From contig CAVXGQ010000005.1 of the NCBI GenBank assembly GCA_963761425.1, forward strand, positions 316,760 to 380,759: 64,000 nucleotides of DNA, written 5' to 3'. The notes below the pieces were generated by a model, which searched no databases, had not been told where the DNA came from, and saw only the letters and a program-made list of their open reading frames with translations. This document shows positions 39,571 through 53,066 of the stretch, piece after piece. The DNA comes from an uncultured Acidimicrobiaceae bacterium. GTDB taxonomy: Bacteria > Actinomycetota > Acidimicrobiia > Acidimicrobiales > Bog-793. Every line of letters starts with the position of its first letter. Position 1 is the stretch's first letter. The position numbers and the translations under genes were made by a program.

Positions 39571-42500
39571 TCAACTCGCCTGCGGCCCGAGCCCCACAGC
39601 CAGATTCAGCCGCTCCAGGAACGGCTTCGCCCCGAGCTGGGTGAAGTTGTCCCTGGCCTCCTTGACCGCGGTGGCATCCGGGTAATCGGGGCCGAGCAGC
39701 AAGACGAGGTCCAGCTCGCATAGAGCAAGGTCGAGAGTGCACTGGAGTGCCCGCCAAGCCTCGATGGCCTTCCGGTAGGACTCGGCCGCCTCCTCCACAC
39801 GCCCGTCCAGTGCGGCCAGCCCGGCCTCCGCCGTGAGCCGCGCCGCCGCCACATGCCGGCCGCGGAAGGCCTTCATCGCCGTCAGGGCTTCTTGCACACC
39901 CTCCACGTCGCGCAGCCAGAGGCAAGCGCGTGCCTGGATCGCCAGGGAACTTGGGCTGTTGACTCCCGTTGGGTCGGCCGACACCGCCTCGGCCGACTCC
40001 CGCCGCGCCGCTTCCAAGTCACCTGCCGCGAGGTCCACGAGAGCCCGAGCCTTCAGGTAGGTGGCACGTCCGGCAACCATTTCTGTGGCCGCCCAGCGGT
40101 CGGCGTGTACGAAGAGTGTCGAGGCCTCTGCAGGGTTCCCCGTGAGCGCCATCAGCAGCCCTTCGTTGCAGCTGAGAAATGCCCTCTGTTCCGAAGGAAG
40201 GTCTCTCTGTCGAAGCTCTGTGATCGCGGCTCGAGTATCACTCCACTCCCCAAGGAAAAAGGACAACTCGGCACCGTTGAGCAGGTTCCCGACTTCGAGT
40301 CCTCGATGCCCTGCCCGCCTGGCCCATTCTGCTCCCTCGAACCAAGCGGACAATGCCTCTCGCGGGTCGTCGCCGGAAATGCAGAAGCTCAACATCGTCC
40401 AACCGAGCGCCTTTTCCAAAAGGGAGCCGGCTGCCTCGGCGAGGGCCACTCCCCCGCGGGCGAGGATGACGGCCTCCCGCTGACGCCCGAGGTTGAACAG
40501 CGCGATCGCCCTGGCGCCGATCGCCTCGGTGAGCAACTCGATGTCGTCGAGCCGCTCGGCGAGGACGAGGGCCGTCTCGGACCATTCCAGCGCATGTCCG
40601 TACGACCCGGCGCTGCTGTGCGCCCTCGCCAACGCGCAGGCGAGTTTCGCTCTCACGTTCTCATCGCCGTCATCCCCGACGGCATGGAACACGCGCACAC
40701 ACAGCTCGATCTCCTCGGAGTAGCGACTCGTATACAGGAGGACGGAGGCCAATCCGACAGTGGCGCGGCCGGCTGCATTCGCGTCGCCGGTTGCCTCGTA
40801 GTAGGCGATGGCCTCCTCGTAGAGAGTGACCGCCCGGTCATAGGCGGACGCGAACCATGCGGCCTCACCGGCGAGCTCGAGCAGGGCGGCACGTTCGGTC
40901 CCGGCGGTGGTCACCTCCAAGGCTTGCTCGAAGAAAACGAGCGCCTGTTCGGGGGAACCGAGCGAAAGCGCACGTCGGCCGGCACGCGTGAGCCAGTCCC
41001 GGGCAGCCGCGGCAATGAGACCGGCCTCGGGGCCTTCGGGGGCGGCACGGTGAGCCTCAACGTAGTGGGCTGCCACGAGGGAAGTGAGTTCGTCGTCTGC
41101 GAGAGACTCGAGATGACGGGCCAGGGCCAGGTGCTTGGCACTGCGGTCCCGGCGGGACAAGGTCGCGTAGGCCACCTCTGCGATGAGGCCCTGCACGAAG
41201 CCGTACTGGCCCCGCTCGGGTGAGCGGGGGTCGGTGTCGAGTGAGAGGAATTCTCTTTGCACGAGGTCGTGGAGATGGCCCTCCAAGCTTTCGTGGTCGC
41301 CACCGTGCACCACGGCAAGGGACGCGGTCGTGAAGGTCCTCCCGACGACGGAGGCGTCTTCCAGGAGCGATCGCTGTTCTGTTGACAACGTGTCCAGGCG
41401 CGAGGCGATGAGGGCGTGCAGGGTGTCGGGTATCTCGAGGGAACCGATCTCGCCGGCGAGGTGGTAGGCCCCCTCGTCCTGTAAGAGGACGCCTTTGTCG
41501 GCGAGCATCCTGACGGTCTCGACGGCATAGAGAGGGACACCTTCCGAGCGCTCGAGGATCTTGTCTCTGAACTCAGAGGGGAGGTCCTTGACGAAGCCCT
41601 CGAGGAGCTCGGCCATGGCTTGATCGGAGAGTGGCTCCAGGTGAAGCGAGGTGAAGGCGCGCTGTCCTGCCCCCCAGTTGGGCCTGCGGTCCATGAGCTC
41701 TGGGCGCGAGAGGGTGATCACCAAAATGGGGTGGTTGCGGGACCACTCGAGTATCGACTCTATGAAGTCGATGAGGCCGGGGTCGGCCGACTGCAGGTCC
41801 TCGAAGACCATGACAATCGGGCCGCGTTCAGAGACTCGTTCGAAAAAGGTCCGCCATGCGGAGTACAGCTCCTCGCGCTCTCCTGGCGGGGCGTCCCCGA
41901 GACCGAGCAGGTGCGCGAGGCGGGGCTCGATCCAGCGGCGCTCCTCGGGGTCGGAGACGTACTCGCAAAGCGACGAAGAGAGCTTGGAGCGTGACGAGGC
42001 GGCGTCCTCGGACTCGTTGATGCCGGCTCTCGTGCGTACCATCTCACCGAGGGCCCAGAAGGTGATGCCCTCGCCATAGGCAGGAGAGCGGCCCTCGTGC
42101 CAGTAGACGGTGTCCGACAGGCCGTCGACGTACTTGCGAAGCTCCCAACAAAGGCGGCTCTTGCCGATGCCGGGTATGCCGCTCACCGAGACGAGACGCG
42201 CCTTCTTCTCGCGGGCGGTGGCGTGAAGCAGTTCCTTCACAAGGCGCAGCTCCTCGTCACGGCCGACGAAGGGGGGCTCCAGGCGTTTTGTGCGACCGAC
42301 GCCCTTGCGCTGTGCCACGACCCTTTCCGCACGCCAGGCACGGACCGGCTCTTCCTTGCCCTTCAAGTTGAGCTCTCCGAACTCGCTGAAGGCGATCGCC
42401 CCGGAGGCGGAGCGCCAGGTGGCCTCGTCGACGAGCACCGAACCTGGCGGGGCGACGCTTTGGACCCTGGAGGCGACATTGACCGTGTCGCCGATCACCA

Positions 42501-43077
42501 TGCCCTCTGACACCTTGCCGATGGTGATCGCGACCTCCCCGGTGACCACCCCTGCCCGTGCCAAGAGCTCCAGGCCGGACTCGGCGCCGAGCTCGGCCAC
42601 AGACGCCACGATGTCGAGCGCGGCGCGGACCGAACGCTCGGCGTCGTCCTCGTTCGCTACCGGTGCCCCCCAGATGGCCATGACCGCATCGCCGATAAAC
42701 TTCTCGACCGCGCCCCCGTAGTTGGCGACGATGGCCTGGGCACGCTCGAAGTAGGAAGAGAGCAGCTCTCTTGTCTCCTCAGGGTCGCGTTTCTCCGCGA
42801 AGGGCGTGAAGCCGACCAGGTCGACAAACAGCACCGAGCACAGGCGGCGCTCGCTCGTGGTGGCGACTTGAACCGGCTGCGCGACACCGCCCGGGGATGC
42901 ACGCGATGAGGCGGAAACGACCGGAGCTGCAACCAGCGTCCCGCAGTTGGCGCAGAACGGCTTGCCCGAAAGAAGCTCCGCACCGCAGGACGCGCACTGT
43001 GCCGCCAACGATCCGCCACAGTTTGCGCAGAAGCGTTTGCCGTCCGGAGTCTCGCCTCCACACGCTGGGCAGCGCAT
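39571..43077 (-). CDS. Class III adenylate/guanylate cyclase with double zinc ribbon, AAA ATPase and TPR region
   Basis: Four CxxC; FVDLVGFT, KFIGDA, GDTVNVASR, GIPGIGKSR and EDLQ motifs. Confidence 0.93.
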   Translation of the reverse strand: MRCPACGGETPDGKRFCANCGGSLAAQCASCGAELLSGKPFCANCGTLVAAPVVSASSRASPGGVAQPVQVATTSERRLCSVLFVDLVGFTPFAEKRDPEETRELLSSYFERAQAIVANYGGAVEKFIGDAVMAIWGAPVANEDDAERSVRAALDIVASVAELGAESGLELLARAGVVTGEVAITIGKVSEGMVIGDTVNVASRVQSVAPPGSVLVDEATWRSASGAIAFSEFGELNLKGKEEPVRAWRAERVVAQRKGVGRTKRLEPPFVGRDEELRLVKELLHATAREKKARLVSVSGIPGIGKSRLCWELRKYVDGLSDTVYWHEGRSPAYGEGITFWALGEMVRTRAGINESEDAASSRSKLSSSLCEYVSDPEERRWIEPRLAHLLGLGDAPPGEREELYSAWRTFFERVSERGPIVMVFEDLQSADPGLIDFIESILEWSRNHPILVITLSRPELMDRRPNWGAGQRAFTSLHLEPLSDQAMAELLEGFVKDLPSEFRDKILERSEGVPLYAVETVRMLADKGVLLQDEGAYHLAGEIGSLEIPDTLHALIASRLDTLSTEQRSLLEDASVVGRTFTTASLAVVHGGDHESLEGHLHDLVQREFLSLDTDPRSPERGQYGFVQGLIAEVAYATLSRRDRSAKHLALARHLESLADDELTSLVAAHYVEAHRAAPEGPEAGLIAAAARDWLTRAGRRALSLGSPEQALVFFEQALEVTTAGTERAALLELAGEAAWFASAYDRAVTLYEEAIAYYEATGDANAAGRATVGLASVLLYTSRYSEEIELCVRVFHAVGDDGDENVRAKLACALARAHSSAGSYGHALEWSETALVLAERLDDIELLTEAIGARAIALFNLGRQREAVILARGGVALAEAAGSLLEKALGWTMLSFCISGDDPREALSAWFEGAEWARRAGHRGLEVGNLLNGAELSFFLGEWSDTRAAITELRQRDLPSEQRAFLSCNEGLLMALTGNPAEASTLFVHADRWAATEMVAGRATYLKARALVDLAAGDLEAARRESAEAVSADPTGVNSPSSLAIQARACLWLRDVEGVQEALTAMKAFRGRHVAAARLTAEAGLAALDGRVEEAAESYRKAIEAWRALQCTLDLALCELDLVLLLGPDYPDATAVKEARDNFTQLGAKPFLERLNLAVGLGPQAS

Positions 43078-45397: not shown

Positions 45398-46359
45398 AGT
45401 CGCCACCAGCTGAGCCAGACGAGTCTCGGATCGGCACCTCCTTGGCACGTGCAGTCGGTGGGGGAACCGGCGTTGGCGGTTGCGTGACCGGGTAGGGGAG
45501 AGAACCTCGATCTCGGCGCGAAGCCGGAAACCGTGCTGCTCTTCACTCTCCTCGTGCTGATGTGGGGGGAATGCTCGCCCTGAAGCCTCCGTCGAGGTGA
45601 GGAGCGGCGATCGTCAGGGCCTGTTTCACAGCAGGCCTCCGGGACCGGTTCGCCGGGGTGCGGCAGACCTCGACCACCTTTCAAGTGGCCCCAGGGGTGG
45701 GCCAACCCGACACTGCTGATCCCACGAAGCGTTGTCGGGCTGCCCGCCCGGTTGGCGGGGCCCACCTCTCACGGGTCGACCAGACGCGGTGCGCCGGGCT
45801 CGTCGAGGGGGTGGCCCCGCCCGAGTTTTCCTGGCGCTTCCCACCCAGATTGTCCGACCGATGGGCGTCTTCTGCGAAAGAGATCTCTCCGTCTCCGAGA
45901 AAAGCTGGCGATTCTTGATCGTCGCGGCACCCGGTGTTGCCTTGTTTCCACAGGTCGATGCCTCGCGAACTCGAAGGCGCGGTCGAAGCGACCCCAGAGG
46001 GGGCCACCGACGACGGTGGGACCCGGAGCACTCGCGCGACAAAGGCGGCCCGTAGGTCCCAGCGTCTCGGCTTCGCGAGTGGCCGGCCGAAAGAGGGAAG
46101 AGAGCCAATGTCACAGGCCGCCGGTAGCGTCCCGCGTCCTATCGAATCGCGTTCGCGATCCCTTCCTGCCAGCGGTTCCGGGCCTTCCCGGTTGCCGTGG
46201 CGACCCGTTGTCCCGCCATGGGTCCTCCTGGTGGCGTCCCGGTCGGAGTTTCGTTCCGGTTGCCGCATCTTCAGCTGACTCGCGACGTGCGGGGCTTAGG
46301 CCTCGGCGTCGCCGCCATCTCATCTGCATCGCACCAGCACGACACGAAAGGACAGAGAA

Positions 46360-46995
46360 GTGACCGCGCGGATCGAACGTTCGGATGTCATGGTGCGGCT
46401 GGCCGAGGGGATCGTCAACCTCACGTCCTCCGAGGAGTGGCGGCGCTACCTGGAGTTTCAGAGCCGCTTCCACAGCTACAGCTTCAACAACGTGCTCCTC
46501 ATCGCGGCCCAGTGCCGCGAGGCGACCCAGGTGGCCGGTTTCAGCGCCTGGCGCAAGGTGCACCGCTTCGTGCGCAAGGGCGAGAAGGCCATCTGGATTC
46601 TCGCCCCCATCATTGACCGGCGGGGCAGCGCGACAGACGGCACCCCCGACCCCGAGGTGCGCGGCTTCCGGTTCGTGCCGGTGTTCGACGTGTCCCAGAC
46701 GGAGGGACGAGAGCTACCGTCGGTCTGCAGCCGGCTCGTCGGTGACGACCCGGCTGGACACTATGGGCGTCTCCTCTCGGTCGCCCGGCACTTCGGCTTC
46801 GACATCGAGGATCACGAGTTCGACGGCAACGTCAACGGAGAGTGCTCCCATGCCGAGCATCTCATCCGGATAGAGAGCCGGAACACGCCAGTCCAACGGG
46901 TTAAGACCCTGGTTCACGAGATCGCCCACGCTCTGCTCCACGAGAGCTTCGACGATCAAGCGCTCGCCGAACTCGAGGCGGAATCGACCGCTTAC
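46360..46995 (+). pseudogene. ardC-like gene, N-terminal part (interrupted)
   Basis: FHSYSFNNVLLI, AGFSAW, VRKGEK, VFDVSQT, HEIAH and ELEAESTAY; homology resumes at 52332. Confidence 0.88.
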
Positions 46996-47132
46996 CCACT
47001 TATCTGGACAAGTGGAGACTTCAGAAGGAGATCGACTTGTTCGGCCCAGTTTCCAATGAGAGATCGATAGTCGTTGAGGAAGAGGTCGCTCGGGTCCCCC
47101 AGCTCGGCGGTCGAGAGTGGTCTTCTGGTGGG

Positions 47133-48305
47133 GTGGAGGCGAACGAGTTCCGGGTGAGGCGTCGTCGAGAAGGCGCCAGCGGCGCTCCTTGCGCACTCGT
47201 CGACGGCGCGGGCCATCCGGTGCCGATCATCTCGGGCTTTCTCCGATACTTGACGGCCCGGGGTTGCTCACCGAACACCGTTTCGGCCTACGCGCACGAC
47301 CTGCTGCACTTTTTTCGCTTCCTCGACGTCGCCGAGCTGACCTGGCAGTCCTTCGGGCCACCGCAGACGATCGAGTTCCTCGAGTACCTGCGCGCCGTGC
47401 CGGCTCGCCGCCCGGGCCAGCGACTCGGCCTCGCTCCCGTCGCCAGGTCCGGCTCTGGCGGCGCGACCCAGTTGAGCCCGCCCACGGTCAACCGAGTGCT
47501 GGCTGCAGTCTCGTCCCTCTACGACTACCTCATCTTGAGCGGCAACCTCACCGCCGGGGACAACCCGCTGCTGAAGCGCCCGGACCCGGCCGCGGCGCGG
47601 GTGTCGGAGCGGCACCGCCCCTTCATGGGCCGTGCCAGTCGCCAGCGCCCGATGCGCCGATCGATTCGGGTCCGGGAGGTCGAGCGCCTGCCACGGCCCC
47701 TCAGCGACGAACAGGTGGCGGCGCTGCTCGGCGAGCTGCACAGCGACCGTGACCGCGCGCTCGTGCTCGTCATGCTGGAGGGCGGCCTGCGTCCTGGCGA
47801 GGCCCTCGGTCTCCAGCTCGCCGACATCTCCTACGGGAGGCGCCGGGTGGTGGTCCGCTGTCGGGACGACCACCCGAAAGGCGTCCGCTCCAAGTCCCGC
47901 ACCGAGCGGGTCGTCGACCTCGGCGAAGGGGCGGCGCTCGCCGCGCTGAGCGCCTACGTGATGGGGAGCCGACCGCGCCACCTGGAGGTGCCCTGGGTCT
48001 TCCTCGTCGGCGGCCGCGGTCCCCGCCGGGCCGAGCCGCTCGGCTACCCCGCTCTCGCCAAGGCCTTCGCCCGGGCGGCGACCCGCGCCGGCATCCGCGA
48101 GCCCTGGGTGACCCCGCACGCCCTGCGCCACACCCATGCCACGAGGATGTGGGAGGGGGGCATGCGCGAGCTCACCTTGCAGCGTCGCCTCGGCCACGCC
48201 TCGGCGGAGTCGACCCGGCTCTACACCAGGGTGGCGGACCGAATGGTCGTCGCCGAGTACAACCAGGCGCTCGGAAACCCGGCCCCGGGAGCCTCCAAGC
48301 GATGA
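47133..48305 (+). CDS. Tyrosine recombinase (TnpA-like)
   Basis: SPNTVSAYAHDL, GLRPGE, HALRH, LGH and RLY motifs; start approximate. Confidence 0.92.
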   Translation: MEANEFRVRRRREGASGAPCALVDGAGHPVPIISGFLRYLTARGCSPNTVSAYAHDLLHFFRFLDVAELTWQSFGPPQTIEFLEYLRAVPARRPGQRLGLAPVARSGSGGATQLSPPTVNRVLAAVSSLYDYLILSGNLTAGDNPLLKRPDPAAARVSERHRPFMGRASRQRPMRRSIRVREVERLPRPLSDEQVAALLGELHSDRDRALVLVMLEGGLRPGEALGLQLADISYGRRRVVVRCRDDHPKGVRSKSRTERVVDLGEGAALAALSAYVMGSRPRHLEVPWVFLVGGRGPRRAEPLGYPALAKAFARAATRAGIREPWVTPHALRHTHATRMWEGGMRELTLQRRLGHASAESTRLYTRVADRMVVAEYNQALGNPAPGASKR

Positions 48306-50359
48306 CCGCCCTTGCCGCCCTCGCCACCGGGGTCGGGGCCGGGGCCCCGACCCCGACCCACGCGAGCGCCGAGGAGTTCGACGAGCTGGTGCGCCGGCTC
48401 TCCCCCGACCCCGACTACCGCCACCGCCGCCAGCGCCAGCGGGCCGACTTTGCCGATCGCTACCCCGACCTCGCCGACTGGTTCGCCGAGCCGCTCGGAA
48501 GACGGGTGGGGCGCCGCTTCGGGGCTCCCCCCGGGGAGCTCGTCGACCCGGTCAGTTACGAGGCCCGCACCTACCTGCTGTTCCTGGGTGTCACCGGCCG
48601 GGTGGCCTTCGACTTCGAATGGCTGCTCGCCGTTCCCTACGTCGGCATCTGGCGCTTCGCCGCCGCCCTCGACCTCGACGTGGCCCGCGTCGCCGCCGAG
48701 GAGTTGCCCGCCGTCGCCGAGAAGCTCGGCTATCGCTCGAGGACCGCCCAAAAGGCGGCGCACTGGGCACTCGCCCGGTTGTTCTTGCACAAGGCCGAGG
48801 CGAGCCTCGACGGGATCACCGTCGCCGACCTCGACGAGCTCTCCGAGGCGATCCGCGCCTTCGGGCACCGCGGAGACGTCGCCAGCTTCCACGGTCCGGG
48901 CTACGAGCGCCTTTCGGCCGACTGGCGGAGCGTGCTGCACCTCCTTCACGTCCTCCTCTACCACCGCGGCCAGGTTGCCGATCCTCCGCGACGCCGGCTG
49001 GTCGCCCCGTCTCGCCCCTCCCCGCTGCCCGAGCCGATGGCCCAAACGGTGACCCGCTACCTCGCGGCGCGGGCGTTGCTCGACCGTCCGGCCACGCTCG
49101 ACAACCTCGAGCGGGGCCTTCGCCGTTTCGCCGGCTGGCTGGCGGCGGAGGTGCCGGGGCTTTCGAGCTGGACCGAGCTCACCCGGGAGCAGGTCCTCGC
49201 CTACGCCGGGTGGCTGGGTGAGGCGCCGAACTCCCGCACCGGGGCCCCGCTGGCGGCCAACACCAAACGTGGCCTGCTCGCTCCGGTGGTGGCGTTCTTC
49301 CGAGACGCCTCGGCCTGGGGGTGGGAGGAGATGCCGTCCCGGCCGTTGCTGGCTGGCGGCGACCTGCCGAAGATCCCCCTCGCCGTTCCCCGTTACATCC
49401 CCGACGACGAGCTTTTCCGCCTGATGGTCGCGGTGCGCGAGCTCTCCTGCCCCTTCCAGCGGGCCGCCCTGTTGGTCGCCCGCTGGAGCGGGGCGCGCCG
49501 CGGCGAGATCGGCCGGTTGCACCTCGACTGCCTCGACGCCTACCCCGACGGCACGCCGCGTCTCCGCCTTCCGGCGGGAAAGACCTACCGGGAGCGGGTC
49601 GTGCCGTTGAACCCTGAGGCGGCGGAGGCCATCCAAGCGGTCCAGGCGCTGCGCTCCGGGCGGGCCGAGCGAGGATTCGTCGACGAGCTCACCGGGACCC
49701 CGACGCGCTACCTCTTCGTCCGCCACGGGACCCGCCTCTCCATGGGCTACCTGTTCGAAGCGGCGCTCCGGACGGCTTGTGGCGCGACGGGACTCGTGAC
49801 GCCGGAGGGCAAGCCGACGATCAGCGCCCACCGCTTCCGCCACACTGTCGGGACCCAGCTTGCCGAACGGGGTGCGAAATTGCACACGATCATGAGTGTC
49901 CTCGGCCACACGAGCGTGTCGATGGCCCTCGTGTATGCGCAGATCAGCGACCGGGAGGTGCTCCGCGACTACCAGGCCGTGCTCGGTCCCGGGGCCGCGC
50001 TCGCCGGGCCGAGCGCCGAGGTGTTGCGCTCGGGGACCCTTCCCGCCGAGGCGGTCGACTGGCTGAAGTCGAACTTCTTGAAGACCGAGCTCGAGCTCGG
50101 TCACTGCCTGCGGCTGCCGGAGGAAGGGCCCTGCGAGTGCGATCTCTACCTCAACTCCGCGAAGTTCGTGACGAGCGCCGCCTACGCGCCACGCCTGCGG
50201 CGTCGGCGCGCCCTCGAGCTTCAACTCGCCGAGGATGCGACCGTTCGTGACTGGCAGCGAGAGGTCGAGCGCCACCGCCGGATCGCGAACCGCATCGAGT
50301 GCCTGCTCGACGAGTTGCGGGAGCCGCTCGACCAACCCGAGGAGAAAGGTGAGAAGTGA
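48302..50359 (+). CDS. Large tyrosine recombinase (TnpB-like) with N-terminal extension and Cys-rich tail
   Basis: ATGA overlap with the upstream gene; GARRGE, GKT, HRFRH, LGH, VYA and HCLR...CEC motifs. Confidence 0.92.
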   Translation: MTALAALATGVGAGAPTPTHASAEEFDELVRRLSPDPDYRHRRQRQRADFADRYPDLADWFAEPLGRRVGRRFGAPPGELVDPVSYEARTYLLFLGVTGRVAFDFEWLLAVPYVGIWRFAAALDLDVARVAAEELPAVAEKLGYRSRTAQKAAHWALARLFLHKAEASLDGITVADLDELSEAIRAFGHRGDVASFHGPGYERLSADWRSVLHLLHVLLYHRGQVADPPRRRLVAPSRPSPLPEPMAQTVTRYLAARALLDRPATLDNLERGLRRFAGWLAAEVPGLSSWTELTREQVLAYAGWLGEAPNSRTGAPLAANTKRGLLAPVVAFFRDASAWGWEEMPSRPLLAGGDLPKIPLAVPRYIPDDELFRLMVAVRELSCPFQRAALLVARWSGARRGEIGRLHLDCLDAYPDGTPRLRLPAGKTYRERVVPLNPEAAEAIQAVQALRSGRAERGFVDELTGTPTRYLFVRHGTRLSMGYLFEAALRTACGATGLVTPEGKPTISAHRFRHTVGTQLAERGAKLHTIMSVLGHTSVSMALVYAQISDREVLRDYQAVLGPGAALAGPSAEVLRSGTLPAEAVDWLKSNFLKTELELGHCLRLPEEGPCECDLYLNSAKFVTSAAYAPRLRRRRALELQLAEDATVRDWQREVERHRRIANRIECLLDELREPLDQPEEKGEK

Positions 50360-51162
50360 TGGATAGCTTCCTCGTGGCCCGCAACCCCGATCCGGATTCC
50401 ACCCTGCCCTACCTCTTGCGCCTGCCGCTTCCCGGTGGCCCGCTCCTCTTGAAGGCTCGCGACCCCTGGCCCCGAACCACGAAGGTCTACTGCCACCGGG
50501 CCGAGTTCTGGCCGGAGGACCCCGACCTCGTCGAGGAGACCCCGATCCGCAGTTGCGAGCGCCGCGGCGTCGCCATCGATCTCGTCCTCGACCGCTCGCG
50601 GTTGAATCGCTCGCAGTTCGTGTTCACGAAGATCCAGGGCGGGCGGGAAGCGATCTTCTGGCAGTCTCCTCGCACCACACGGACCGCTCGTCCGGGCCTC
50701 CGGGTGCCGACCCGGCGGGCCTCTCGTCACCAGGCGCTCGAGATTCTCGTCGACAGCCGCGAGCGCTACCCCTATCGCTTCGCACGCCAGCAAGCCGTCA
50801 CCGAGCGGCGGGCAATTCCCGCCGGGGATTACGGGGTCGAGCTCGACGGGGACCTGGTCGCCGTCGTCGAGCGCAAGACGGTGCAGGACCTCGCGAGCTG
50901 CCTCGTCGACGGCAGCCTGGCCTACCTGCTCGCCGAGCTCTCCGCCCTCCCCCGAGCCGCCCTCGTCGTCGAGGGCCGCTACGCGCAGCTGCTGAAGCTC
51001 GAGCACGTGAAGGCCGGCTTCGTCGCCGAACTCCTCGCCACCGTCCAGGTCCGCTACCCGAGCGTCCCGATCGTCTTTCTGGACACCCGGCCACTCGCCG
51101 AGGAGTGGAGCTTCCGTTTTCTCGGTGCGGCCCTTTCCTATTCGCGAGCCGCGGAGTCTTGA
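50359..51162 (+). CDS. ERCC4/XPF-domain nuclease
   Basis: VDSRE, GDY and VERKTVQDL motifs; start overlaps the recombinase stop. Confidence 0.85.
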   Translation: MDSFLVARNPDPDSTLPYLLRLPLPGGPLLLKARDPWPRTTKVYCHRAEFWPEDPDLVEETPIRSCERRGVAIDLVLDRSRLNRSQFVFTKIQGGREAIFWQSPRTTRTARPGLRVPTRRASRHQALEILVDSRERYPYRFARQQAVTERRAIPAGDYGVELDGDLVAVVERKTVQDLASCLVDGSLAYLLAELSALPRAALVVEGRYAQLLKLEHVKAGFVAELLATVQVRYPSVPIVFLDTRPLAEEWSFRFLGAALSYSRAAES

Positions 51163-51429
51163 AGGTCTCACCGGCCTTGCCCCGTCGAGGGGCGAGGTCG
51201 GTGTTGGTGAAGGGAATTCCTTCCCGCCAGGTCGCCGCAGTCTACCGACACCCCTTCCGGGCTCAAGGGACGCTCCGGGGCGCCGCCACGGTGGGCGACC
51301 CTCCGGGTCGGCTCGCGCCTCGCCCACCGGGCTCCGCTTCCTCTGCTCTTCGCCCCTGACCCCGGCGGGGTCCCCGTCGGTCGCCCGCCGCCAAGGCGGG
51401 ACGGTCCCGCCGAAGAAAGGCGGAGTCCG

Positions 51430-52329
51430 ATGCAGCGACCAGCACACCACAAGAGCGAGATGCCCCGGAGGGACAGGCTCGCCGAGACCCACGATCGGCT
51501 CGTCCAGGCGGTCGAGTCGCTCACGAGCGGCGAAGACTGGCAGCGCATGCTCGACGTCGCGCGCCAGTTCCACACCTACAGCCCGAACAACGTTTGGCTC
51601 ATCTTCGCCCAGCGACCGGAGGCGACTCGGGTGGCGGGGTTCCACACCTGGAAGAAACTCGGTCGCTTCGTCCGGGCCGGCGAGAAGGGGCTCGCCATCC
51701 TGGCCCCCTGCGTCTACCGGGCCCGACCCCTCGAGCCGACCGAGGAGGTCGAGCACCCGGAGCTCGCTCGCATCCTCCGTGGCTTCCGGGTGGTTCACGT
51801 TTGGGACCTGGCCCAGACCGAGGGGGCTCCGTTGAGTGAGGTCGCGCCGGTCCTCTTAGAGGGCAACGCTCCTTCCGTGCTCTGGGAACGGCTCGAGACC
51901 CAGGTGCGCGCCGCGGGGTTTAACCTCTTGCGAGGCGACTGTCGTCCGGCGAACGCGACCACACACTTCCTCACCCGCACCGTCGTCGTCCGTCCGGACC
52001 TCTCGCCCGCCCAGGCCACCAAGTCCCTGTGCCATGAGCTCGCTCACGTCCGCCTGCACGATGGCCGCGAGTACGCCACCGGATGCCGGGGGATCGCGGA
52101 GATCGAAGCTGAGTCGGTGGCGTATCTCGTCTGCTCCTCGGTCGGCGTGCCCACGGACGGCTACTCCTTCCCCTACGTCGCACGGTGGGCCGAAGGGAAC
52201 ATTTCCACGATCAGGGCGACCGCCGACCGCGTGATCACCTGCGCCCGCTCGATCCTGAACGCTGCCGGCCTGGGGCGAGAAGCCCCTGGCGCAACGCTGG
52301 ACAACGAGCGACTTGATCTGTCCACATAA
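51430..52329 (+). CDS. Intact ArdC-like protein (ssDNA-binding plus HExxH metallopeptidase domain)
   Basis: FHTYSPNNVWLI, AGFHTW, VWDLAQT, HELAH, EIEAESVAY and YSFPYVARW; stop codon lies within the right IR. Confidence 0.88.
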   Translation: MQRPAHHKSEMPRRDRLAETHDRLVQAVESLTSGEDWQRMLDVARQFHTYSPNNVWLIFAQRPEATRVAGFHTWKKLGRFVRAGEKGLAILAPCVYRARPLEPTEEVEHPELARILRGFRVVHVWDLAQTEGAPLSEVAPVLLEGNAPSVLWERLETQVRAAGFNLLRGDCRPANATTHFLTRTVVVRPDLSPAQATKSLCHELAHVRLHDGREYATGCRGIAEIEAESVAYLVCSSVGVPTDGYSFPYVARWAEGNISTIRATADRVITCARSILNAAGLGREAPGATLDNERLDLST

Positions 52330-52331
52330 AC

Positions 52332-52634
52332 GTCGTTTGCTGTGCGCTCGGGATCGACAGCGGCGGGTACTCCTTCGGGTACCTCGCGACATGGGCCGGC
52401 GGCGGCGAGCCAGCGATCGCCGGTGTCAAGGTCTCCTGTGGGCGCATTCAGAAGGCCGCGGCCGTGATCCTGGGCGCGATGGGGCCCGAGGCGGCCGACC
52501 AAGCGGCCTCATGCTGGGCTGTCGGGAGACGGACGGGTGGCCCTGCCATAATCAGGTCAGCCAGCATCGGATCCGGGGAGGCCGCGCTCTCGGCACCTGC
52601 TCGCGACGCGGCAGGTCGGGGTTTCGCGCGATAG
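52332..52634 (+). pseudogene. ardC-like gene, C-terminal part
   Basis: My translation: VVCCALGIDSGGYSFGYLATWAGGG...RIQKAAAVIL. Confidence 0.85.
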
Positions 52635-52661
52635 AACGTGAACAGGGATGACGACGAATCA

Positions 52662-53066
52662 ATGACGGTTTCCTCGGACACATCTCCGGAACCGAACCGG
52701 ATCGGACTGCTCGAGAGCGCCTTCGCGTTCTCGCCCCTGGAGACGGTGTGCAAGGCGGTGTCCGCGGCGACGGAGATCGATCCAGAAATCTTCATCGAGC
52801 GGCAGGGGGACGGGTTCCGCTGGAGCTTCACCAGCAAAGAGGGTGCCTTCGTGCTGCTCGAGAAGGTCGCGAGGTTCTTGGGTATCGACCAGAGCCACCT
52901 CCTCGTCGGGTTCCGCACGCTCGACGACGGCACCTTCGTGGTCCACGACGATCGGGTCGACTTTGAACCGTCCGAGGAGTCGGCCCTCATTAGCTTCTCC
53001 GTTCCGACCACGGAATCCGAGGTCGCGGCCGAGATCCGCCGGCGATTCTCGGTCCAGGGCGACTAG
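52662..53066 (+). CDS. Hypothetical acidic protein
   Basis: Clean ORF with protein-like composition; no motif recognised. Confidence 0.6.
   Translation: MTVSSDTSPEPNRIGLLESAFAFSPLETVCKAVSAATEIDPEIFIERQGDGFRWSFTSKEGAFVLLEKVARFLGIDQSHLLVGFRTLDDGTFVVHDDRVDFEPSEESALISFSVPTTESEVAAEIRRRFSVQGD

Follow-up and report, generated by a model that had tools for sequence, protein, structure and literature searches.

The 64,000-nucleotide stretch analyzed here (the window, from contig CAVXGQ010000005.1 of an uncultured Acidimicrobiaceae bacterium) contains an ardC-like gene that is split by an insert of 5336 bp. Our explanation of this insert, which we consider likely when taken as a whole, is that it represents a site-specific transposon, 5.3 kb in length, which belongs to the Tn554 superfamily, has coupled recombinases and 11-bp ends, moves by the mechanism outlined below, and brings a replacement ArdC. 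The part of this explanation held most firmly is that the element is very probably an active (or recently active) site-specific transposon aimed at a motif in ardC. It holds four genes, encoding a short tyrosine recombinase (YRA), a long tyrosine recombinase (YRB), an ERCC4-domain protein, and an ArdC-like protein (the cargo ArdC). The genome, with 2.28 Mb in 6 contigs, has three copies of the 5336 bp, which differ pairwise by 0, 1, and 2 bases, and each copy interrupts an ardC paralogue of its own, immediately behind the Tyr codon of an EAES.AY motif and in equal orientation (3/3). With the addition of one insertion in a Williamsia strain, all four insertions in ardC-like genes lie after this Tyr codon and in one orientation.

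In the window (copy A), the translated N-terminal part of the host gene contains HEIAHALLH and has ELEAESTAY as its last residues. The reading frame of the split gene is picked up at 52332, where the first letters are VVCCALGIDSGGYSF / VVCCALGIDSGGYSFGY, and the resumed C-terminal part matches the C terminus of the cargo ArdC in tblastn. The insert can be bounded at 46996-52331 or equally at 46994-52329, because the dinucleotide AC stands at both sides. It opens with CCAC-TTATCTGGACA and closes with TGTCCACATAA-AC; the two 11-bp repeats are complementary at 10 of 11 positions, and the TAA stop codon of the cargo gene forms the final three bases of the right repeat. A first-pass annotation of this DNA had described a gene broken after EAESTAY, its in-frame resumption, and the 5336-bp insert, and all of these observations were correct. 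Its description of the contents (11-bp inverted repeats, two coupled recombinases, an ERCC4 nuclease, and an intact ArdC ending within the right repeat) was confirmed by the sequence and by Pfam.

The ArdC single-stranded DNA-binding domain (ArdcN, PF08401; cut-off, 22.6 bits) is found in the cargo ArdC (39.8 bits) and in the host proteins of copy A (33.7 bits, N-terminal part) and copy B (39.7 bits). The HExxH domain is also present, and it matches Peptidase_M78 (IrrE-like) at 23 to 26 bits (23.7 in the host N-terminal part and 25.8 in the cargo ArdC), which is barely over the cut-off of 22. The safe name for these genes, whose anti-restriction activity is only predicted, is “ardC-like.”

The three targets differ from one another. 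The host parts of copy A are 38 to 40% identical to the cargo ArdC, and the split target of copy B, on contig 3 and directly upstream of a gene encoding a TrwC relaxase-helicase, is 69% identical to it. No uninterrupted ardC was found in this genome outside the elements. Nucleotide similarity among the three loci ends at the insert boundaries, and the host parts are about 40 to 69% identical as protein. This bears on an explanation that involves no transposition at all, in which a single ancient insertion spread by duplication, homologous recombination, or gene conversion among ardC paralogues. The insertions do all lie in one gene family, which would offer the homology that such a spread might use. 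However, the flanks diverge at once beyond the 5336 bp, the inserts are 0 to 2 bases apart in host proteins of 40 to 69% identity, the boundaries coincide with terminal repeats and 6-bp spacers that are common across phyla, and an independent element of another genus sits at the same codon. We therefore regard spread without transposition as extremely improbable.

That independent element was found via its junction. The EAES.AY motif is nearly invariant in this protein family: other genomes of the order have intact homologues at 19 loci, of which 17 contain the motif, and the site reads ...GCCTAC in 10 of these 17. Empty sites are therefore common in nature. A pattern composed of the EAESxAY codons, 4 nucleotides, and the left repeat was scanned against one genome each from 185,579 species, which gave one further match, in Williamsia sp. 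MIQD14. A looser pattern gave the same match, and the junction pattern had no match in viral contigs. The ardC-like gene of this strain, which adjoins DUF3560 and DnaB-N-like genes, is split at the same codon and in the same orientation (...EVEAESVAY / VLAGLLGLDTATYSIGY). The 9.3-kb element inside it has the same repeats, a YRA with 62% identity and a YRB with 51% identity to those of the window, and about 6 kb of other cargo, which encodes a PD-(D/E)XK nuclease, an N6/N4 DNA methylase, an AAA_5 ATPase, and a 494-aa protein without a Pfam match. A quick maximum-likelihood (ML) tree built from 36 representatives of YRB places the two ardC-targeting proteins as sisters, with a support value (SH-aLRT, an approximate likelihood ratio test) of 97. 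The targeting of ardC, already proposed in the first-pass annotation, is borne out by four independent insertions at one codon (three paralogues and the Williamsia gene). The Williamsia cargo also resembles a cluster of restriction-modification genes with an McrB-like ATPase (PDDEXK_13/REase-ARP, N6_N4 methylase, and AAA_5) that lies inside an anti-restriction-type gene.

Both recombinases match Phage_integrase in Pfam (E values of 3e-27 for YRA and 2.9e-21 for YRB), and the catalytic motifs R, HxxR, H, and Y are visible in their translations. Tn554 TnpA (pWBG4) matched the element in tblastn with 27% identity over 360 aa (E = 1.6e-33), and Tn554 TnpB (pWBG4) matched it with 25.6% identity over 433 aa (E = 5e-31). 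This homology spans essentially the entire recombinase parts of YRA and YRB, and the gene order is the same as that in Tn554; the two genes overlap by the ATGA at 48302-48305. Judged from the sequence, the element is a member of the Tn554 superfamily, as it has both the recombinase pair and insertion at one site in one orientation. No tblastn match of Tn554 TnpC (DUF6262) to the element was obtained at E values up to 10, and the ERCC4 gene that follows YRB has no DUF6262 match in Pfam. Exactly two open reading frames (ORFs) with Phage_integrase are present in the 5336 bp and no third recombinase, so that the earlier count of two tyrosine recombinases, with neither TnpC nor a third recombinase, was upheld by tblastn and Pfam. 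The best NCBIfam models for both recombinases are Xer models, which score far under their cut-offs. An IMEX-type reading, with the host XerCD doing the work, was ruled out, since the element encodes two recombinases itself. On contig 4 of the same genome (about 458130-460741), another short and another long tyrosine recombinase lie together. This pair is only distantly related, with 37% identity to YRA and 28 to 32% identity to YRB, and is probably a further Tn554-like element.

Table 1. Features of the insert and of the split ardC-like gene in the window
Feature	Coordinates	Strand	Basis or remark
Host ardC-like gene, N-terminal part, 212 aa	46360..46995	+	ORF translation; Pfam ArdcN and Peptidase_M78; junction sequence
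Left 6-bp spacer ACCCAC	46994..46999	+	Identical in all three copies
Whole insert, 5336 bp	46996..52331	+	Three copies in genome
Left terminal inverted repeat TTATCTGGACA, 11 bp	47000..47010	+	Same motif at YRA-side end of relatives
YRA, short tyrosine recombinase, at most 422 aa (uncertain start codon)	47037..48305	+	Pfam Phage_integrase and SAM-like domain; Tn554 TnpA homologue
YRB, long tyrosine recombinase, 685 aa	48302..50359	+	ATG overlapping YRA stop; Pfam Phage_integrase; Tn554 TnpB homologue
ERCC4-domain nuclease, about 268 aa	50356..51162	+	Pfam ERCC4, E = 2.8e-12
Cargo ArdC-like gene, intact, 299 aa	51430..52329	+	ORF; Pfam ArdcN and Peptidase_M78
Right terminal inverted repeat TGTCCACATAA, 11 bp	52319..52329	+	Motif kept in relatives
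Right 6-bp spacer ACGTCG	52330..52335	+	Target's own sequence
Host ardC-like gene, C-terminal part, 100 aa	52332..52634 (stop at 52634)	+	Frame reading; tblastn to cargo ArdC C terminus

The spacers just outside the repeats indicate how the element may join its target. The left spacer is the same in all three copies and is therefore carried by the element, and its first two bases (AC) also complete the Tyr codon of the target. In copies B and C, the right spacer is ACCTGG, which is target-derived and has only AC in common with ACCCAC, and the Williamsia element has the spacers ACATGC (left, its own) and ACGTCC. Other lineages of related elements also have one spacer that is constant per lineage and one that is target-derived, with 2 to 4 bases in common at one edge (the 5' end). 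The sets found are AGGCGG versus AGGTGG, AGTTGG, AGGTAG, and AGATAG; CATCGA versus GGTCGA, CGTCAA, and others; and ACGCCG versus ACGAGG. At some loci, both spacers are identical (ACTCGG, CACTCG, CATCGA, and TCACCG). When joined head to tail, the ends would form two inverted 11-bp arms around a 6-bp spacer (11-6-11), which is the layout of a tyrosine recombinase core site. Such a joint would also be dif-like, as its arms, ending in ...CATAA and starting with TTAT..., surround a 6-bp spacer in the manner of the dif consensus.

The element would be excised as a circle, or copied out as an intermediate, with the joint TGTCCACATAA-ACCCAC-TTATCTGGACA. YRA and YRB would then synapse the circle joint with the ardC site, and strand exchange would occur at the AC edge of the 6-bp spacer. 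If this exchange is single or biased, replication or biased resolution might finish it, with no full second exchange across the non-identical spacer, and such a one-sided exchange would leave the spacer of the element on one side and that of the target on the other. Completion of the strand exchange by replication has been proposed for Tn554 and for SE elements, and a 6-bp “fingerprint/footprint” of this kind is described for SE elements and relatives of Tn554 (PMC10214605 and PMC12486829). In the look-up of public sequencing runs, seven rows from three studies contain part of the window, and the contigs of four runs include known junctions of copies A and B only. Over 46000-53000 of the window, contigs from a soil metagenome run of the second study cover the element at 99 to 100% identity and leave the flanks of copy A uncovered; this may reflect the element in another habitat or host, and it is too thin a basis for naming a second host.

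Elements of this type are widespread. YRB homologues with 38 to 60% identity occur in Chloroflexota, Alpha-, Beta-, and Gammaproteobacteria, and Actinomycetota, and a YRA homologue lies directly upstream at 43 of the 49 genome loci with a YRB homologue. Partners of YRB homologues elsewhere are 46 to 62% identical to YRA. Further YRB matches came from 80 metagenome loci and 130 plasmid records, and the set used for comparison of the family consists of 132 loci (49 from genomes and 83 from metagenomes and plasmids). Among 400 other genomes sampled from the same class, none has a YRB above 31% identity. The repeats TTAT.T.GACA / TGTC...ATAA are paired at 70 of the 132 loci (at least 9 of 11 complementary bases), and most such elements are 3.27 to 3.6 kb in length and contain nothing beyond the two recombinase genes. 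Near-identical copies with differing flanks fix the element ends, as for a 3389-bp element of Rhodobacterales plasmids. Copies of this bare element are found at many sites in Rhodobacterales genomes and plasmids (loci L029-L058 and L197-L201), always in a small DUF6915 gene (...VHDWFD, with the break after the last residue). One Arenibacterium strain has three copies of it on two plasmids, two of them within a 16.6-kb duplication, and an ORF near the copy in L058 is, as we judge from its translation, presumably a radC-like JAB-domain gene.

According to Pfam matches of the reading frames that abut the elements, each lineage has its own target, at a single place in a single protein-coding gene. 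The targets include Tn3-type transposases, a Mu-like rve transposase, an IS-type rve transposase, SRAP (SOS-response associated peptidase), DUF6915, and a DUF1156 methyltransferase; most are genes of other mobile elements. Among the 70 loci with paired repeats, the target was assigned to DUF6915 in 17, to Tn3 in 12 (13 with L022), to rve in 4, to the Mu-like type in 4, to SRAP in 3, to DUF1156 in 1, and to ERCC4 in 1, with 26 unassigned. The Tn3-type transposases are broken at about position 180 of a 389-position DDE profile in three lineages, and the target classes correspond to clades in the quick YRB tree. The expectation that the flanks of relatives would repeatedly be ardC split at the same codon held for the Williamsia element and failed for the relatives with 38 to 60% identity, which sit at other targets, one per lineage. 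Several loci deserve mention in their own right. Tn3-family transposase genes are hit at L019, L022, and L193 (also L024, L025, L027, L152, L192, and L194), so that one transposon family breaks the genes by which other transposons move. The Tn3-family transposase gene bordering the recombinase pair at L152 (Streptomyces sp. Q6 plasmid p1) is truncated, and L153 has a long recombinase without a partner, after which comes an ORF with DUF4158 (Tn3 transposase N-terminal). The SRAP clade comprises L212, L049, L218, L229, and L061, and L220 and L225 carry 2.7 to 3.8 kb of cargo.

A second lineage, found in metagenomes (L186-L191, L210, L216, L221, and L222; YRB identity, 46 to 57%), also carries a copy of its target. 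L186, L187, L188, L190, and L191 are identical up to CGTCCAGATAA plus 6 to 7 bp, beyond which each runs on into an ERCC4 homologue of its own. The break in these five genes always follows one and the same Tyr codon (...IEA(P/R)Y, with the break after Tyr), which makes five independent insertions. Just inside that end, beside the repeat downstream of YRB, the element has a complete ERCC4 gene. At L187, the other end (TTATATGGACA) is also present, as is the C-terminal part of the target, giving a 7.1-kb element; an additional 2.8 kb of cargo lies between its left repeat and YRA (L187:286-3118). Weak matches between cargo and flank at L056, L152, and L213 (E values of 1e-4 to 4e-6) were rejected as noise, given their scattered frames and high G+C content. 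Carrying a copy of the target is thus recurrent, yet it is the exception in the family and not the rule. We tentatively propose, with the reservation that it may well prove wrong, that these elements constitute an undescribed subfamily in which every lineage is directed to a conserved codon motif of its own, for the most part in genes that other mobile elements carry, by one-sided exchange at a dif-like 11-6-11 joint, and in which at least two lineages would have independently gained a copy of the destroyed gene, possibly immune to insertion. The carrier, whether a conjugative element or the chromosome, would thereby become dependent on the transposon for the function in question, a form of addiction by gene replacement.

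In the element of the window, the cargo ardC follows the ERCC4 gene after a gap of 267 bp. It is intact in all three copies, keeps HExxH and EAESVAY, and is full length compared with 17 intact relatives, with matches that cover residues about 10 to 285 of 299. The intact cargo ArdC may substitute for the gene destroyed by insertion. That the gene is kept because it replaces the broken one is plausible, and we put the odds of it at slightly less than even. The cargo gene has its own version of the target site, GTCGGTGGCGTAT followed by CTCGTC, whereas the four targets read (A/G)TC(G/C)(A/G)(C/T)CGC(C/T)TAC up to the point of insertion. Compared with these targets, the cargo site has three synonymous differences at invariant or restricted positions, including TAC to TAT (thus AC to AT at the spacer edge). 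The altered site may keep the element from inserting into itself; the pattern is only suggestive.

Several observations weigh against the explanation of a rescuing, self-immune transposon or limit what can be claimed for it. TAT is also found at the codon in question in 4 of the 17 intact ardC genes of relatives, so that site immunity is no more than suggested. The surroundings of copy A are housekeeping-type genes, and copy C lies in an ardC remnant, with an N-terminal part of only about 40 aa, adjoining a GH6 gene; not every target needs rescue. The first-pass annotation had called ardC typical of the leading regions of conjugative elements, which fits copy B with its TrwC relaxase gene and does not fit copies A and C. 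It had also asked for a conserved ardC cargo, and here the answer was negative: the Williamsia element has neither ardC nor ERCC4, so that ardC is carried by just one of the two ardC-targeting elements found, and ardC matches are absent from the relatives (0 of 49 genome loci and 0 of 83 metagenome and plasmid loci). Among 16 cargo-bearing relatives, homology between cargo and flank is clear only in L187, weak in three, and absent in twelve (one of them without a flank). TnpC is missing from the element, although Tn554 requires it to transpose, and the YRB tree comes from a quick ML search only. Finally, no circle joint, empty site, or new insertion was seen in the four public runs, the contigs of which are uninformative on absence.

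Some of these points would also fit an ardC-specific mobile element in which the cargo ardC (and ERCC4) is passive. The element would have acquired it at an earlier insertion site, when excision went wrong or another end was used, and there would have been no selection for rescue. The Williamsia element uses the same codon without ardC, cargo in the family is highly variable, most members are bare elements of 3.3 to 3.6 kb, and the 69% identity between the cargo ArdC and the target of copy B fits capture from a B-like gene. The authors of the work on Tn552-II likewise consider that the features of its target-gene-like (tgl) gene are possibly remnants of an ancestral form (PMC12486829). However, the cargo gene is intact in all three copies, is of full length, and keeps both HExxH and EAES.AY. 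Furthermore, two unrelated lineages each carry precisely their own target gene, which is hard to credit to chance capture alone, and no sensibly placed relic inverted repeat (up to 2 mismatches) was found within the element and no target fragment between ERCC4 and ardC. We thus consider passive capture unlikely, and the replacement of the broken gene remains our preferred reading of the cargo.

The ERCC4 gene of the element, the start of which overlaps the YRB stop at 50356-50361, is found in its own genome only inside the three copies. Its relatives are encoded in 199 stretches of other genomes, mostly Actinomycetota; in the best 80 of the 199 (56 to 75% identical), neither ardC nor a strong recombinase match lies within 8 kb, and two of the 80 have weak YRA-like matches of about 29%. 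At the position homologous to the site used by the ERCC4-targeting lineage, the protein reads VVEGRY followed by AQLL. The gene may be left over from an earlier target, may simply be a passenger, or may provide an accessory nuclease where Tn554 has TnpC. The last of these possibilities belongs to a broader alternative in which both ArdC and ERCC4 serve the element itself: ArdC, with its single-stranded DNA-binding domain and metalloprotease, would act on an intermediate in single-stranded or circular form, protecting or processing it; ERCC4, as a structure-specific nuclease, would replace TnpC by resolving the Holliday junction after one strand exchange; and the ardC target would be a side effect. 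The overlap of ERCC4 with YRB at the place where Tn554 has tnpC, the absence of TnpC, and a pattern of constant and variable spacers that fits a reaction leaving a junction for resolution are all consistent with such roles. However, most relatives transpose with YRA and YRB alone, many near-identical bare copies lie at different sites, the Williamsia element has neither gene, and the 80 ERCC4 homologues examined stand apart from ardC and from strong recombinase matches. Service to the element is thus very unlikely to explain the cargo.

Other genes of the window near copy A include a carbamoyltransferase-family gene (Pfam OTCace), a zincin-like gene, and an HhH-GPD glycosylase gene, along with a long ORF that we take, from its translation, to be valS. 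At 39571-43077 on the minus strand, the window also encodes an 1168-aa protein that combines a double zinc ribbon, an adenylate/guanylate cyclase, an AAA_16 ATPase, and TPR repeats and that is unrelated to the element.

Tn554-type tyrosine recombinase transposons are best known for the resistance genes that they carry in staphylococci and enterococci. The many lineages described here, with equal 11-bp ends, differing targets, and a rule for the spacers, make strand exchange and target recognition directly testable. For the most part, these transposons insert into genes of other mobile elements and probably ride on them, and the two independent cases in which a transposon brings a copy of the gene that it breaks bear on how selfish elements reduce their cost or become indispensable. 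Recombinases with short coding motifs as their recognition sites might also lend themselves to programmable site-specific integration.

The first-pass annotation had proposed an undescribed family, a claim that is not supported in that form: YRA and YRB are homologous to TnpA and TnpB of Tn554, and both TnpC-less relatives (PMC3414803) and the tgl gene (PMC12486829) have been published. The literature thus already contains elements of this general kind, examples that lack TnpC, and the proposal of a rescue copy. A literature search found no paper on ardC together with Tn554, nor a subfamily with 11-bp ends, a catalogue of targets, ardC as a target, or a complete and possibly immune target copy at the element end; the search did not cover subscription journals and supplementary tables, and the lists in PMC3414803 and PMC10214605 may bear on novelty.

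Tn554 of Staphylococcus (tnpA, tnpB, and tnpC) resembles the element of the window in having a short and then a long recombinase gene, co-oriented, overlapping, and homologous to YRA and YRB, and in inserting at one site of a conserved gene without a classical target duplication. It differs in its target (radC instead of ardC), its possession of TnpC, and its identity of only 26 to 27%, and the element of the window has clear 11-bp inverted repeats as ends. A sequence of 6 to 7 bp moves along with Tn554 (PMC10214605 and PMC12486829); in Tn552-II and SE elements, the carried 6 to 7 bp lie on the side away from tnpA or intA (PMC12486829 and PMC10214605), whereas the constant spacer of our element lies on the tnpA-like side. 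RIT elements are defined by three consecutive tyrosine recombinases, in contrast to the two Phage_integrase ORFs found here, and, unlike elements that exploit dif and XerCD, the element brings recombinases of its own and is directed at coding motifs rather than at the chromosomal dif.

Closer comparisons are offered by three published groups. Van Houdt et al. (2012) described Tn554-related pairs of a long and a short recombinase on actinobacterial plasmids, some of them without TnpC (PMC3414803). The likeness extends to the adjacent pair with one abnormally long member, the TnpC-less class, and several identical copies per genome; ends, targets, and cargo are not given in the section on these elements (PMC3414803). 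On one of the listed plasmids, Rhodococcus erythropolis pBD2 (NC_005073.1), the best YRB match is only 28% identical, and the element of the window therefore belongs to a different subfamily. The SE elements of Idola et al. (2023), with their 6-bp “fingerprint/footprint,” have imperfect terminal inverted repeats, one junction with the 6 bp of the target, and another with the carried 6 bp (PMC10214605). They require four genes (intA, tfp, intB, and srap) and were reported from Gammaproteobacteria (PMC10214605), whereas our element has no counterpart of tfp or srap between or after the recombinases, as YRA and YRB overlap directly and are followed by ERCC4. Tn552-II, described by Wan et al. (2025), is a Tn554-family element that carries a homologue of its target gene, tgl, for which rescue of disrupted target genes was proposed (PMC12486829). 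Its recombination genes are tnpABC, its target is yolD-like, and it carries a resistance operon in a Staphylococcus host (PMC12486829), whereas in the element of the window a complete ardC abuts the right end and TnpC is absent.

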